From contig SVPP01000010.1 in the NCBI GenBank assembly GCA_015065765.1, positions 12,760 through 36,759 of the forward strand: a DNA stretch of 24,000 nucleotides, in the 5' to 3' direction. Under the pieces are notes generated by a model, which was not told the DNA's origin, searched no databases, and was given only the letters and a program-made list of their open reading frames with translations. A program made the translations under genes and the position numbers. Positions within the stretch are counted from its first letter, which is position 1; each line of letters opens with the position of its first letter. This stretch comes from Oscillospiraceae bacterium (GTDB lineage Bacteria; Bacillota; Clostridia; Oscillospirales; Acutalibacteraceae). Shown here one piece after another: positions 8,031 to 22,404 of the stretch.

Positions 8031-8077
8031 TATAATAACAGCGTAGCCCCGAAATTCTGCATTCTTCACTCTGCATT
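8031..8077 (+). repeat. Intergenic repeat family B, copy 1 (TATAAT box plus CCCCGAAATTCTGCATTCTTCACTCTGCATT)
   Basis: It aligns with 14946-15000 and 22353-22404, all in the same orientation. Its right end overlaps the stop codon (8076-8078) of the minus-strand phosphoesterase gene. Confidence 0.7.
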
Positions 8078-8537
8078 AAATATGTGCATTGACGCACATA
8101 ACCTCGCCTTTCGGAGTAATATCAATAAATCCATAGTTCCCGTCCCTGACACTTCCCGGATTAAAAACATAAACTCCGTCGATATATTTACTCACAGGAA
8201 TGTGAGTGTGGCCATATAATATAATGTCAGCACCTAAAGACTGACCTTTGTAGATAAGATTATCTATGCCGAATTTCACATTTTCAAGAAATCCGTGGGT
8301 TATGAAAAACTTTTTACCTTCAATCACCTGAGTGACATTTTCTTCAAGTTCAGAATAAAAATCACAGTTGCCTCTGACCTTGATTACATGCTTATCAATG
8401 AGGTGTATACCGCATCTGTGTATATCGCTTTCACCGTCACCGAGAAAAATCACAACCTCTGCAGTCGGATGGTTTCTGATTATCCGGCTTAAGGTAAAGC
8501 TGTCCCCATGTGAATCGGAAAGAACAAGTATTCTCAT
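8076..8537 (-). CDS. Metallophosphoesterase, YfcE/MJ0936 family
   Basis: 153 aa. It carries MRILVLSDSHGD, GDGESD, RGNCD and the GHTH motifs. Confidence 0.85.
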   Translation of the reverse strand: MRILVLSDSHGDSFTLSRIIRNHPTAEVVIFLGDGESDIHRCGIHLIDKHVIKVRGNCDFYSELEENVTQVIEGKKFFITHGFLENVKFGIDNLIYKGQSLGADIILYGHTHIPVSKYIDGVYVFNPGSVRDGNYGFIDITPKGEVMCVNAHI

Positions 8538-12475: not shown

Positions 12476-12503
12476 ACTATATCACATTTACAGAAAATGT
12501 CAA
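12476..12503 (-). promoter_or_regulatory. Candidate strong sigma-A promoter for the DUF386-GH78 operon (TTGACA-16 nt-TGaTATAGT)
   Basis: On the minus strand, -35 TTGACA lies at 12498-12503 and -10 TATAGT at 12476-12481, preceded by an extended TG. It sits immediately downstream of the RT terminator. Confidence 0.5.
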
Positions 12504-12504
12504 G

Positions 12505-12529
12505 AAAAAAAGCCGCCTCTCGGGGCAGC
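12505..12529 (-). terminator. Rho-independent terminator downstream of the retron RT
   Basis: The minus-strand RNA reads GCUGCCCCGAGAGGCGGC, a GC-rich stem with one mismatch (12512-12529), followed by U7 (12505-11). It begins 22 nt after the RT stop. Confidence 0.55.
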
Positions 12530-12551
12530 TTCAATCAGACACTGACTACGG

Positions 12552-13607
12552 TTATGTTTTGTATCTGTCTTCCATAATTCTTTTGCGGGCTTCGGAAAAG
12601 AATCTGTTATCCGGCTCTATCTGCAGAACATAGCTCACTCTGCCCAGAATGCTCAGATAATATTTTTCCTCGTCAACCTGTCCGTCTGAAATAAATTCTT
12701 TGTTTTCCGTAAAAAGAACAGTGTTGACTATGCCGTGCTTGAGAACATAGTAAACCTCCTGACGGAGCTTTCTTTTGTAATCTGACGGCACAGACACCTT
12801 TTCATTGACGGTAAGACCCGTTACTGTCTGACGGTCAGAGCTTGTAATGAATCGGGTTTTCTTTTCATTTACCTCAAAGCCCATTTCCTCAAGAAGAGAT
12901 TTTGACTTTTTAAACACACCATACAAGGGCACATTCCCTGAAAATGTCAGGTCATCGCAATATCGGGTGTAGGAAACCCCTCTTTCCTTGCACCATGTAC
13001 CTATCAGCCTGTCAAACGACGCCATTACTATATTTGAAATTGCAGGTGAAGTTGGTGCTCCCTGAGGGAGAACATCGTCATTGCAGACAAGAGCTGTAAG
13101 CATCACCCCGATCTGACGGGGAAAATATTTTGTATTGAAAACAGCTGAATAAATTCTGTCAAAGCATATGGAGCTGAAAAAGTCTGTAATATCCATTTTC
13201 AGAAGATATTTCTTTCCGCAATGGACAGATGCATTATCATAAATTGTTTTCCTTTTCAGATAAGCGTAGGCGTACTCAGAAACGCTGTAGCAAGAAAGAA
13301 TTCTTCCGGCAATTACGCTCTGTATTCTCTTGAGCTTTGAAGACGGAATAATCAGCGTACGGATGTTTCCGTTTTTCTTAAGGATATTGACAGGTCTGTA
13401 GTGATTGTCAACAGTTTTCACAAGACTGAACAAATCCTTTCTTCCGATACCCAGCAGGTAAGCTAACTGATAAGTGTCGTACACAAAAGGAGTTTTACGC
13501 TCTGAAACATAATCCCCCACCATTCTGAAGGCCTCGGAAATGCCGAATTTTTCAACAAAATGCATGTCACTCTGTTCGAAGGATATATGACCTTTTGTTA
13601 TTTTCAT
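12552..13607 (-). CDS. ret: Retron-type reverse transcriptase
   Basis: 351 aa from ATG 13605-13607, with GGAG at 13617-13620 and a 9-nt spacer. RT motifs are LPQGAPTSP and YCDD (12951-12962). The retron-lineage hallmarks NAxxH (NASVH, 13221-13235) and VTG (RQTVTGLTVNEK, 12816-12824) are both present. There is no maturase/En or other extra domain. An msr-msd-like structured region lies directly upstream on the same strand. Confidence 0.9.
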   Translation of the reverse strand: MKITKGHISFEQSDMHFVEKFGISEAFRMVGDYVSERKTPFVYDTYQLAYLLGIGRKDLFSLVKTVDNHYRPVNILKKNGNIRTLIIPSSKLKRIQSVIAGRILSCYSVSEYAYAYLKRKTIYDNASVHCGKKYLLKMDITDFFSSICFDRIYSAVFNTKYFPRQIGVMLTALVCNDDVLPQGAPTSPAISNIVMASFDRLIGTWCKERGVSYTRYCDDLTFSGNVPLYGVFKKSKSLLEEMGFEVNEKKTRFITSSDRQTVTGLTVNEKVSVPSDYKRKLRQEVYYVLKHGIVNTVLFTENKEFISDGQVDEEKYYLSILGRVSYVLQIEPDNRFFSEARKRIMEDRYKT

Positions 13608-13631
13608 TTTCTGCATCTCCTTTTTATTTAA

Positions 13632-13646
13632 CATACCCCGACAACA
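13632..13646 (-). repeat. Retron inverted repeat, 3' arm (ret-proximal)
   Basis: It is the exact reverse complement of 13813-13827. Confidence 0.8.
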
Positions 13647-13812
13647 CAAAATGTCCGGTAATGAACGAAGACGAATTTCTAATCACGAAGTGATTTCTGA
13701 TTCGGCGTAGTGAAATTATCGGCAAGCGTTTTACTTGTAAAACGCAGTCCCGAGAAAAAATATACAAGACAGCGACTCGCTGCCCCTTCCTGCTTTTGGC
13801 GGGATTGTTCGC

Positions 13813-13827
13813 TGTTGTCGGGGTATG
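13813..13827 (-). repeat. Retron inverted repeat, 5' arm (start of msr)
   Basis: It is the exact reverse complement of 13632-13646. Confidence 0.8.
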
Positions 13828-13832
13828 GTTAA

Positions 13833-13838
13833 ATCATA
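13833..13838 (-). promoter_or_regulatory. Possible -10 box (TATGAT) for the retron transcript
   Basis: TATGAT on the minus strand lies 5-6 nt upstream of the 5' repeat arm, which would put the transcription start at the edge of the repeat. I found no convincing -35. Confidence 0.3.
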
Positions 13839-13870
13839 ACTTAAGCCATGGGGCAAAAACGGTACAGGCC

Positions 13871-13900
13871 AAAAAAAGCGACTGAAACCAGCCGCTTTTT
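13871..13900 (-). terminator. Rho-independent (bidirectional-looking) terminator downstream of the ChbG/YdjC gene
   Basis: The hairpin AGCGACTGAAACCAGCCGCT (13877-13896; 7 bp, one mismatch) is flanked by A7 (13871-13877) and T5 (13896-13900). It lies directly after the stop at 13903 and separates that gene from the retron. Confidence 0.5.
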
Positions 13901-13902
13901 AA

Positions 13903-14775
13903 CTATTTCTTCATTTCAATCATATCTCTGTATGAAATAAGTTCGATGCCGTGAGCATTAAGATGCTGTTCTGTTTTGGGGTCTTTCATAATCTGATATT
14001 CCCACACTCTGTCACGCCATCTTGCTGTAATACCCTTGATTTCGTCGCATTCAACAGAAGGATGAACGTAAGTTTCGCTGAAGCCTGCAGGAATATTCAC
14101 AAGGTCTTCAAGGAACATTTCGCGGTATCTCTCGTAGCTTGTTCTCATTTCGTCATTCCATTTGGGGAAGATGAGATAATCAGGCATAATAACATTATTC
14201 TTTTTGCCGAGATGGTCGCAAATCTTACAAGCAACTGCATAAAGGAAATAAGGTGTACCCTCGGGACATTCCTTTTTGAGAGGCTTTCTGCACATTCTGA
14301 ATGCATAACCAAGTTCACCGCAAAGCTTCATTGTCATGGGAAGAAGCTTGAAGTTACCGCCCTCAATGCCGTAAAGTGAACCCATATGGTTATCAAGATG
14401 TGAGGGTTTCATGCCCATGCTTTCGGCAAGTTTAACCTGCGCAAGAATTTCCTGTCTTGCCTCTTCAAGGTCTGCGTGTTTTGCGAAATCTTCACACTCA
14501 GGCCACATAAAACCTTTTTCGTTTTTAAGTGAAGGAAGGTCTGTAATGGGACCCCAGTTGTAACTGCCCCATTCGCTTGTAGTTGTAAGATGCACACCGA
14601 TTGCATACTGAGGATTGTCAATTGAGAACTGAACTGCCTCTTTTGCAAATTTACAGGGCATCATAATTGTTGAAGATTTAAGTCTGCCTGATTTGAAAAG
14701 GTCCATAACAGCCTCATTTGCCGCACCGCACATGCCGAAGTCATCGGCGTTTATAATAAGATATTTGTCTGCCAC
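13903..14775 (-). CDS. ChbG/YdjC family carbohydrate deacetylase
   Basis: 290 aa with the N-terminus YLIINADDFGMCGAANEAV characteristic of YdjC. The start is GTG at 14773-14775 with a GGGGAG RBS. Confidence 0.85.
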   Translation of the reverse strand: MADKYLIINADDFGMCGAANEAVMDLFKSGRLKSSTIMMPCKFAKEAVQFSIDNPQYAIGVHLTTTSEWGSYNWGPITDLPSLKNEKGFMWPECEDFAKHADLEEARQEILAQVKLAESMGMKPSHLDNHMGSLYGIEGGNFKLLPMTMKLCGELGYAFRMCRKPLKKECPEGTPYFLYAVACKICDHLGKKNNVIMPDYLIFPKWNDEMRTSYERYREMFLEDLVNIPAGFSETYVHPSVECDEIKGITARWRDRVWEYQIMKDPKTEQHLNAHGIELISYRDMIEMKK

Positions 14776-14945: not shown

Positions 14946-15000
14946 TATAATTTGCGACGCAGTCCCGAAACTCTGCATTTTGCATTCTGCCTTCTGCACT
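14946..15000 (+). repeat. Intergenic repeat family B, copy 2
   Basis: The sequence TATAATTTGCGACGCAGTCCCGAAACTCTGCATTTTGCATTCTGCCTTCTGCACT aligns with copies at 8031-8077 and 22353-22404. Confidence 0.7.
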
Positions 15001-21854: not shown

Positions 21855-22329
21855 GGCTCCCTTGTGTAAAGGGAGCTGTCAGCCGTCAAGGCTGACTGAG
21901 GGATTGTTTAACAATTTTATCAATATATTCACAAACCCCTCTGAAATTCTGATTGACTTCATTATTCGGAATTCTTATTATTTTCAAACCATATTCTTCA
22001 AGATATTTGGTTCGTTCTTCATCTTTTTCCATACCGACAGTATCATAATGTTGAGAGCCGTCAATCTCTATAACAAGTTTTGCGGAAGCGGAATAAAAGT
22101 CTGCAATATATTTTCCAAGAACCTTTTGTCTTGAAAAACGAACAGGATAAGTTTTCAAGAAGTCATACCATAAATGCTTTTCTTCTTTTGTCATGTTTTT
22201 TCGAAGTGTTTTTGCAATAGGTACTATATTTCTATTATGTTTCCTATCCAACATAATGCTCCTTTTTTCTTCACAATCCCTCAGTCAAAAAACTTCGTTT
22301 TTCGACAGCTCCCTTTACACAAGGGAGCC
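21855..22329 (-). mobile_element. DUF559 endonuclease cassette bounded by structured terminal inverted repeats (MITE/homing-like; mobility not shown)
   Basis: The outer 26-mer GGCTCCCTTGTGTAAAGGGAGCTGTC (21855-21880) is exactly inverted at 22304-22329. The inner 13-mer GACTGAGGGATTG (21894-21906) is exactly inverted at 22274-22286. Between these modules each end carries a different small hairpin. Confidence 0.45.
21886..22254 (-). CDS. DUF559 (Vsr/restriction-endonuclease-like fold) domain protein
   Basis: 122 aa. The pattern ARKLRKNMTKEEKHLW...L...FRRQ, then DF.....L.IE.DG..H, then D..R...L...G is typical of DUF559, read here as AKTLRKNMTKEEKHLWYDFLK...FSRQKV...ADFYSASAKLVIEIDGSQH...DEERTKYLEEYGLKIIR. 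The last 7 codons and the stop lie inside the left inverted repeat. Confidence 0.8.
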   Translation of the reverse strand: MLDRKHNRNIVPIAKTLRKNMTKEEKHLWYDFLKTYPVRFSRQKVLGKYIADFYSASAKLVIEIDGSQHYDTVGMEKDEERTKYLEEYGLKIIRIPNNEVNQNFRGVCEYIDKIVKQSLSQP

Positions 22330-22352: not shown

Positions 22353-22404
22353 TATAATCGGCGAAGCCCCGAGATTCTGCATTTTGCATTCTGCACTCTG
22401 CATT
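22353..22404 (+). repeat. Intergenic repeat family B, copy 3
   Basis: The sequence TATAATCGGCGAAGCCCCGAGATTCTGCATTTTGCATTCTGCACTCTGCATT ends 3 nt before the stop of the minus-strand gene at 22408. Confidence 0.7.

Follow-up and report, generated by a model that had tools for sequence, protein, structure and literature searches.

What is encoded by the DNA directly upstream of a reverse-transcriptase (RT) gene, ret, in contig SVPP01000010.1 of an Oscillospiraceae bacterium? A 24,000-nucleotide stretch of this contig (hereafter "the window", to which all coordinates refer) was analyzed, with emphasis on positions 13632-13827 of the minus strand. A first-pass annotation, made from the sequence without database searches, had called this region the msr-msd of a retron, whose product would be msDNA (multicopy single-stranded DNA). 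We judge it likely that a stand-alone retron belonging to the Ec107-like lineage (clade 2 in Mestre et al.) has its msr-msd here and that its msDNA would measure ca. 105 nt. The element is a new member of an already known lineage; no new kind of system is revealed. The first-pass call agrees with ca. 95 homologous loci and with published data on the non-coding RNA (ncRNA) and the DNA made by reverse transcription (RT-DNA) of relatives.

The elements are ordered on the minus strand as follows: a1, G13812, hairpin 1, hairpin 2 (containing GCGAGUCGC), a U-rich linker, hairpin 3, a long hairpin, G13647, and a2. The repeat arms, hairpins, and priming-G context listed in the first-pass annotation were all found in place. 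The 5' arm of the terminal inverted repeat, a1 (CAUACCCCGACAACA; 13813-13827, minus strand), has an imperfect extension to 13832; the 3' arm, a2 (13632-13646, minus strand), was defined by a repeat search and the family alignment. Read on the minus strand, a1 (CATACCCCGACAACA, 13827 to 13813) and a2 (TGTTGTCGGGGTATG, 13646 to 13632) are complementary at 15 of 15 nt, and the repeat can be extended to 20 nt with 90% complementarity. In the window, there are only four inverted repeats of at least 14 nt within 400 nt, of which a1/a2 was the first in the list; according to hand arithmetic, ca. 0.005 perfect 15-mers would be expected by chance at spacings of 100-300 nt. Directly 3' of a1 (GCGAA) lies the candidate branching (priming) residue, G13812 (minus strand), in the context ACA-G-CGA. 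It faces G13647 (minus strand) at the inner end of the a1/a2 stem, and two opposing G residues at this location are a consensus feature of retron msr/msd regions (Mestre et al., PMC7736814). The A-G following a1 (13813-13812) and the G-T preceding a2 (13647-13646) were invariant in 27 family representatives, and the A-G was still invariant once the ncRNAs of Ec107 and of retrons 482 and 443 of a published census (Khan et al. preprint, PMC10849725) had joined the alignment. Because of its position and invariance, G13812, the residue proposed in the first-pass annotation, is the best candidate for the branching residue.

Folding of the RNA, a check that had been suggested at the outset, was carried out on 206 nt and gave a minimum free energy (MFE) of -70.7 kcal/mol (z = -5.4 vs. 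shuffles); the plus-strand DNA had z = -3.85 vs. shuffles. The end of a2 is 24 nt from the ret start codon (ATG, 13607-13605), which is preceded by GGAG at 13620-13617. A hexamer resembling a -10 element, TATGAT (13833-13838, minus strand), lies 5 nt upstream of a1 and reads TATAAT in the closest homologue, L161.

A protein search returned 1827 relatives at E <= 1e-20, and 170 loci were fetched from genomes, metagenomes, and assemblies. The ncRNA was recovered from 95 loci with full-length RT matches (47-100% identity). All 95 were derived from gut or rumen samples, and those in named genomes were from Clostridia. The order of the elements was identical in every one, within the ca. 200 nt upstream of the RT, with (C)AUUUUG just before a2 and sometimes a tiny hairpin in the linker. 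Twenty-seven representatives (<90% identical) were aligned using MAFFT, and the pairing statistics given here refer to this alignment. Folded singly, nearly all of the representatives reproduced the layout. RNAalifold predicted a1/a2, hairpins 1 and 2, and the inner msd stems, with changes on both sides in 25 of 35 pairs. When a fuller structure was placed on the alignment, 86% of the cells were paired, compared to 74.5% in shuffles and 41-45% with slid partners, and both-side changes were present in 34 of 47 pairs. The a1/a2 stem featured compensatory changes in 10 of its 11 pairs and had 98% of its cells paired. The first-pass annotation held that its helices should be given up if homologues lacked compensatory changes; a1/a2, hairpins 1 and 2, and the inner msd stems covaried.

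The covariance model that it had called for was also built from the homologous loci. This model (R1) represented a 60-position msr core, and its seed was the window family plus Ec107, census 482, and census 443; it was limited to the core on account of the poor alignment of hairpin 3 and of the basal msd stem under MAFFT. R1 located a single site in the window (13764-13823, minus strand) at 58.5 bits, a score that is partly by construction, as the window is in the seed; the next match scored 8.9. It also found sites upstream of 22 non-seed RT genes whose products are 36-47% identical to the window RT, including the enterobacterial L031 (44.7 bits), L011, and L046. Next to RTs below ca. 37% identity, R1 found nothing.

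Hairpin 1 of the msr (UCCCGC / CAAAA / GCAGGA, with one C.A mismatch; 13788-13804, minus strand) was supported by covariation, with both-side changes in six of six pairs and 85% of the cells paired. Hairpin 2 (GGGGCAGCG-AGU-CGCUGUCUU; 13766-13786, minus strand) contains 9 bp; a hairpin noted in the first pass at 13770-13782 is its inner part. The core GCGAGUCGC was invariant in the family, and 97% of the cells were paired. Hairpin 2, with this core, is probably the element recognized by the RT. It is followed by the U-rich linker (GUAUAUUUUUUCUCGGGACU; 13746-13765, minus strand), in which reverse transcription is predicted by homology to end, at ca. 13750-13757. A U-rich tract after hairpin 2 was present in many family members and in census 482, at or beside the predicted RT stop. 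A closing helix between TCCCG (13804-13800) and CGGGA (13752-13748) had also been suggested in the first pass. These segments are complementary in the window, yet 51% of the cells were paired, vs. 48% in shuffles; TCCCG is the 5' arm of the covarying hairpin 1, and RNAfold of the window paired it likewise. With no comparative support, the closing helix was discarded.

The main msd hairpin (13652-13724, minus strand; core 13655-13722) consists of a basal stem, 2-bp and 5-bp middle stems, and a 6-bp apex (AAUCAC/GUGAUU). On the plus strand, CGAAT (13672-13676) pairs with ATTCG (13700-13704), and the apex, capped by a GAA loop, is formed by AATCAC (13681-13686) and GTGATT (13690-13695). In the basal stem (13655-13662 with 13715-13722), there are seven Watson-Crick pairs and the wobble G13658.T13719, which becomes a mismatch (A.C) when read as RNA. 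The long hairpin of ca. 70 nt described in the first pass is present, and its middle stem (100% of the cells paired) and apex (90%) both exhibited compensatory changes in the family. For the basal stem, only 41% of the cells were paired, and the stem is absent from the window's own MFE fold; because nearly all single-sequence folds hold such a stem, the low score was read as a register error of MAFFT. Between the linker and the long hairpin is the variable hairpin 3 (GCGUUUUAC-AA-GUAAAACGC; 13726-13745, minus strand), the arms of which (GCGTTTTAC/GTAAAACGC) form a perfect 9-bp hairpin. Most lineages have some hairpin at this position, with unrelated sequences; L003 and L132 seem to be without one. 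In L004, L007, and L128, the terminal msd hairpin has only 5-6 bp and hairpin 3 is dominant; the terminal hairpin of L089 is also shortened. The length of the msd is very plastic inside this one RT family.

Wobble pairs were used to ask whether selection favors folding of the RNA or of its complement. When a Watson-Crick pair undergoes a transition, the outcome is either G.U, a pair that the strand in question can tolerate, or A.C, which the complement can tolerate as G.T. Helix-internal wobbles were counted in the 27 representatives, and the MFE of each hairpin was compared to that of its reverse complement (Wilcoxon test). For a1/a2, the ratio of G.U to A.C, as read in the RNA sense, was 15:3. 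The ratio was 15:7 for hairpin 1, and the RNA folded better in 21 lineages and the complement in four (p = 0.0025). For hairpin 2, these figures were 27:0, 27, and none, respectively (p = 5.6e-6). The main msd hairpin had the opposite bias, with a ratio of 5:20; the RNA was better in two lineages and the complement in 25 (p = 1.5e-5), with a mean energy difference of 5.75 kcal/mol favoring the complement. Wobble counts in 63 unique sequences presented the same picture. The bias therefore implies that selection has acted on the RNA fold of the msr elements and on the plus-sense DNA fold of the long hairpin. The msDNA polarity proposed in the first pass (plus sense) is thus borne out in 25 of 27 lineages, and this comparative evidence suggests that a DNA copy of the predicted polarity is made and matters. 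For hairpin 3, the ratio was 4:3, and the RNA folded better in four lineages and the complement in seven (p = 0.59). Wobble polarity was therefore set aside as a means of placing hairpin 3, which has almost no wobble pairs; moreover, the automatic picker for this hairpin sometimes took the small linker hairpin. Strand bias of this kind could serve to determine the msr/msd polarity of further uncharacterized retrons.

Evidence for the kinship of the element came from both its RNA and its RT. The msr core GCGAGTCGC occurs nine times in the census supplement (PMC10849725), including in Ec107 and census 400, 401, 418, 443, and 482. The ncRNA of Retron-Eco5 (Ec107) reads CGCCAGCAGTGGCAATA-G-CGTTTCCGGCCTTTTGTGCCGGGAGGGTCGGCGAGTCGCTGACTT ... 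AATG-G-TATTGCCGCTGTTGGCG, and it resembles that of the window in having a1, A-G-CG, hairpin 1, the GCGAGUCGC hairpin with an AGU loop, and an opposing G before a2. In a direct alignment with the Ec107, 482, and 443 ncRNAs, the A-G and GCGAGUCG were common to all. Ec107 is likewise an intergenic msr-msd-RT cassette of ca. 1.3 kb with no accessory gene and no mobile-element features, its RT also has a YCDD box, and the predicted msDNA of the window (ca. 105 nt) is close in length to its own (107 nt). There are also differences. The host of the window is a gut clostridial lineage (with Oscillospirales-type relatives), whereas clade 2 is mostly found in Gammaproteobacteria (PMC7736814); the window RT is only 36-42% identical to its enterobacterial relatives; and the msd sequence is unrelated to that of Ec107, hairpin shape aside. 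A closer counterpart in this last regard is census "Terminal 482" from Ruminococcus flavefaciens, a clade-2 retron of the Firmicutes with the same msr core (PMC10849725). The apices of the two msds are closely similar (CCGAAUCAUGAAUUAACUUCGUUAAUAGAAAUUCGG in 482 vs. CCGAAUCAGAAAUCACUUCGUGAUUAGAAAUUCG in the window), and both have UUUUG before a2. The RT-DNA of 482 was detected and sequenced, at 1.1 times the level of Eco1 (PMC10849725), and has a length of 86-89 nt. RTs of the 482 type (L038 and L045) are ca. 43% identical to that of the window, with tblastn alignments starting at residues 68-69.

The ret gene (12552-13607, minus strand) encodes a retron RT of 351 aa with NAxxH, YCDD, and VTG motifs. 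It belongs to Pfam RVT_1, and its best PADLOC model was PDLC03739 RT_Ec107-like (374.8 bits, E = 8.4e-113), followed by RT_III-A (310 bits, E = 4.6e-93). The motifs are present as NASVH, YCDD, and VTG, and N125, A126, H129, Y216, D218, D219, T263, and G264 were invariant in 33 family members; YCDD is the unusual catalytic box noted for the Ec107 RT. An AlphaFold2 model of the protein had a pLDDT (predicted local distance difference test) of 91.7. The top 18 structural matches in the PDB were all retron RTs (Ec86, 7v9x/7v9u, E = 1.5e-23), with enzymes of group II introns, diversity-generating retroelements, and defense-associated reverse transcriptases (DRTs) ranked below them; a PDB sequence search agreed. 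The protein fell under the curated cut-offs of the Retron St85 model (NCBIfam NF038233; 226.9 bits vs. 235) and of the Ec67 model. The first 45 residues contain an N-terminal extension of ca. 33-45 aa with invariant F10, D14, F17, A26, P40, F41, and D44, modeled by AlphaFold2 as a β-hairpin and two helices. The match to the RT_Ec107-like profile begins at residue 56 and the alignment to the Ec86 RT at residue 46, so the extension is uncovered by both; it is also unmatched in the alignments to the 482-type RTs. The extension seems to be specific to the clostridial subfamily, judging from these alignments.

Two other groups of retrons may be compared. In Retron-Eco1 (Ec86), the branching G that comes right after a1 faces a G located before a2, and the msDNA starts one base further on. 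The window shares with Ec86 the a1/a2 stem with opposing G residues and the RT fold. Ec86 differs in being of type II-A, with a nucleoside deoxyribosyltransferase-like effector, and in having other msr hairpins and another msd; the identity of the RTs is ca. 26%. Type III-A retrons (e.g. Ec73) provided the second-best RT model, and the Ec107 branch was placed next to RTs linked to phosphoribosyltransferase-like proteins (Mestre et al., PMC7736814). Unlike in type III-A, no phosphoribosyltransferase-like or winged-helix gene was found beside the window RT or its homologues. Stand-alone msr-msd-RT cassettes are described in clade 2 by the same authors, who posed the workings of orphan retrons as a question. 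In a 2026 survey of SPIRE genomes, the "Ec107_like" covariance model was among the most frequent matches, and a "clade2_Ec107like" lineage was without accessory modules. Because the homologues adjoin unrelated genes in each locus, the element fits the stand-alone description of clade 2; an adjacent or fused effector gene, as in tripartite defense systems, is absent here and is not a defining feature of that clade.

Where would the DNA copy begin and end? The predicted msDNA extends from 13648 to ca. 13752 (plus strand; ca. 105 nt), with an uncertainty of 5 nt in the 3' end (13747-13757) and a 5' end that is more certain. The start at 13647-13648 suggested in the first pass is consistent with census 482, in which the RT-DNA has its first base opposite the U immediately 5' of the opposing G and its last base 11 nt past hairpin 2; for census 400 and 443, the stop is 9 nt past that hairpin (PMC10849725). 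In census 430, where GGGGAGUCCCC takes the place of GCGAGUCGC, the RT-DNA stops ca. 16 nt past the counterpart of hairpin 2, and a small hairpin preceding the main one is part of it (PMC10849725). For Ec107, a count of 107 nt (the length of its msDNA) from the opposing G arrives 7-9 nt after hairpin 2. The RNA part of Ec107 is 75 nt long, which would fit an RNA-DNA overlap of 6 bp. Since the stops of the relatives are 7-16 nt after hairpin 2, hairpin 3 probably resides in the msd, and the msDNA would be ca. 105 nt long with two hairpins, hairpin 3 being that at its 3' end. In L004, L007, and L128, where the main hairpin is short, an msd without hairpin 3 would measure only ca. 25 nt. Also, G.U pairs hardly ever occur in hairpin 3, in contrast to the msr hairpins, which favors its placement in the msd. 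We estimate that there are about two chances in three that hairpin 3 is reverse-transcribed. The division of the region proposed in the first pass thus stands for the main hairpin, which it assigned to the msd; its assignment of hairpin 3 to the msr is probably incorrect, judging by the RT-DNA ends of the relatives.

Several observations weigh against this interpretation. The 3' boundary was derived from relatives whose RTs are only 40-43% identical to that of the window. The 5' ends of the RT-DNAs of census 400 and 443 lie 4-5 nt further from the opposing G than that of 482 (PMC10849725), so the exact start of the msDNA is uncertain by a few nt. The wobble counts were taken from related sequences and are not fully independent events. 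A search of the window with all 4227 Rfam families yielded no match at the gathering score; Rfam holds one family for retron msr RNA, and no retron family matched 13400-14000 even at E values up to 10. A scan for the sigma-70 consensus upstream of a1 called no -35/-10 pair, and TATGAT is therefore only a weak candidate for a promoter element of the retron transcript. Finally, hairpin 3 is missing from census 482, whose msd is most like that of the window; in L004 and L128, the basal pairs of this hairpin include U.G, which is valid only in RNA; and hairpin 3 lacks the wobble bias of a DNA-sense element.

The last three points would be accommodated if the architecture of the first-pass annotation were right throughout, i.e. 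if the RT stopped at ca. 13724-13730, leaving hairpin 3 as RNA and an msDNA of ca. 75-80 nt. The general description of retrons, in which the msr carries one to three hairpins and the msd one long stem-loop (Mestre et al., PMC7736814), is also compatible with this arrangement. It is nevertheless difficult to reconcile with the stops in the four sequenced relatives and the length of the Ec107 msDNA, which place the end 7-16 nt after hairpin 2 whatever intervenes, with the small hairpin at the equivalent place in the RT-DNA of census 430, with the very short msd that it would entail in L004, L007, and L128, and with the near-absence of G.U pairs from hairpin 3 compared to both msr hairpins. Further, a 9-bp hairpin would be unlikely to halt an RT that had read through ca. 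30 bp of stem. We regard this shorter msDNA as unlikely, albeit deserving of serious consideration.

A second alternative is that the region is not a DNA template at all. It could serve the RT gene as a 5' leader or a regulatory RNA, or belong as ncRNA to a different RT-based system, e.g. DRT2, DRT9, or a group II intron remnant. The lack of an Rfam match and of an adjacent effector is consistent with such an assignment, as is the resemblance of hairpin 2 and its U-run to an intrinsic terminator (hairpin 2 followed by GUAUAUUUUU, 13755-13786, minus strand, scored as terminator-like). However, the RT was far under the cut-offs for group II introns (TIGR04416, 73 vs. 300 bits), Drt2 (54 vs. 390 bits), and Drt3a (43 vs. 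200 bits), and it matched retron RTs best in both sequence and fold. A stem such as a1/a2, in which two invariant G residues face each other, is a retron hallmark, the long hairpin has been selected in the DNA sense, and relatives with the same msr core, such as census 482, yield RT-DNA experimentally. The probability of this alternative is accordingly very small.

The closest relative, L161, has the same YdjC-retron-DUF386 context as the window, and the two were compared at the level of DNA. The identity was 79% over the whole locus, 75.6% in the RT open reading frame (ORF), and 70-87% in the flanks. In contrast, a run of 156 nt (13630-13785, compared with L161:100-430) that reaches from hairpin 2 across the linker, hairpin 3, and the long hairpin through a2 was 100% identical. 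The missing effector, the lack of a clear promoter, and one bulge and one wobble in a1/a2 of L161 might hint that the element is in decay or inactive and has lost the capacity to make msDNA. Such a relic is hardly credible, as the ret ORF is intact with all catalytic and retron-specific residues, the identical RT protein is found on four contigs, and the 156-nt identity beside an RT gene at 75.6% is the opposite of decay.

That identity has two candidate explanations: the ncRNA/msDNA may be under strong selection at the level of its sequence, or the patch may stem from recent recombination. The latter has to be taken seriously because, in other lineages, msd alleles have been shuffled between otherwise identical flanks (L141, L142, L129, and L147). 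In L129, L134, L141, L142, L145, L147, L156, and L157, msd alleles containing …GGTCAGATACGTTCCGG… or …AATCTGATACGCTCCGG… were observed in both combinations with two variants of the upstream flank and the a2-proximal sequence. This pattern suggests recombination inside the ncRNA gene between co-circulating retron lineages.

Taken as a retron with an msDNA of ca. 105 nt, the element would function as follows. A transcript starting at or just before a1 would fold such that a1 (13827-13813) pairs with a2 (13646-13632), as the covariation implies, thereby setting G13812 opposite G13647, an arrangement suggested by the invariance and position of these residues. The RT, encoded 24 nt downstream, would bind the msr hairpins, above all the GCGAGUCGC hairpin (13766-13786). 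By homology, it would prime from the 2'-OH of G13812 and, with copying begun at U13648, proceed leftwards along the RNA across the long hairpin and probably hairpin 3. Based on the sequenced relatives, it would stop in the U-rich linker ca. 9-16 nt short of the GCGAGUCGC hairpin. The predicted product is a branched RNA-DNA molecule whose plus-sense DNA would fold as a long imperfect hairpin followed by a short 3' hairpin. The start, stop, and priming residue of this DNA are directly testable predictions.

No effector gene accompanies the cassette: searches of the flanks with Pfam and PADLOC, and of the homologous loci, found none, and there were no PADLOC defense matches. Millman et al. left Ec107 out of their defense tests. 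The predicted two-hairpin msDNA of ca. 105 nt, the 156-nt identity, and the N-terminal extension of the RT led us to contemplate that, within the effector-less Ec107 lineage, the clostridial subfamily is a variant of its own whose msDNA functions through its very sequence and not through its fold only; we hold this to be doubtful. If it were true, the RT-msDNA complex might act alone or with an unlinked partner, e.g. as a decoy or sensor for a nucleic-acid-binding protein of phage or host, or as a starvation-linked regulator, as was once proposed for Ec107. In any case, the cassette is a compact and clean example of an effector-less retron and bears on the orphan-retron question of Mestre et al. 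(PMC7736814). Related clade-2 retrons were good RT-DNA producers and genome editors in the census (PMC10849725), and members of the Ec107-like clostridial family may thus be useful tools.

The cassette appears to be self-contained. A terminator-like hairpin with a T-run (12509-12532, minus strand) lies directly after the ret stop codon and closes the retron transcription unit, and another hairpin and T-run, at 13873-13900, ends the upstream gene. A near-consensus promoter-like site (TTGACA-16-TATAGT with an upstream TG; within 12476-12532, minus strand) would serve the DUF386 gene. Given the terminator after ret and the separate promoter-like site of the DUF386 gene, the retron looks like an insertion between two independent units; hairpins at both ends and the next gene's own promoter-like site therefore delimit a self-contained cassette of ca. 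1.35 kb. It occupies an intergenic site, and no mobile-element features were found at the cassette. The flanking genes were assigned by Pfam to YdjC, DUF386/YhcH, an alpha-L-rhamnosidase, and a YbaK-type deacylase. The neighboring genes differed in every homologous locus.

Other features of the window were also recorded. A scan for tRNA and tmRNA genes in the window found none. The weak Rfam matches were rejected as a terminator look-alike at 13872-13940 and chance matches. An ORF of 122 aa (21886-22254, minus strand) resembles a DUF559-type endonuclease by eye only. Its region has perfect inverted repeats of 26 nt (21855-21880 / 22304-22329) and 15 nt (21893-21907 / 22273-22287), and 21855-22329 could be a small invertible or mobile cassette. 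Lastly, a 44-nt repeat rich in CTGCATT(C/T)TGCATTCTGC is present in three copies (8039-8082, 14955-14998, and 22359-22402) that share 70-84% identity with the reference copy, suggestive of a dispersed family of extragenic repeats.

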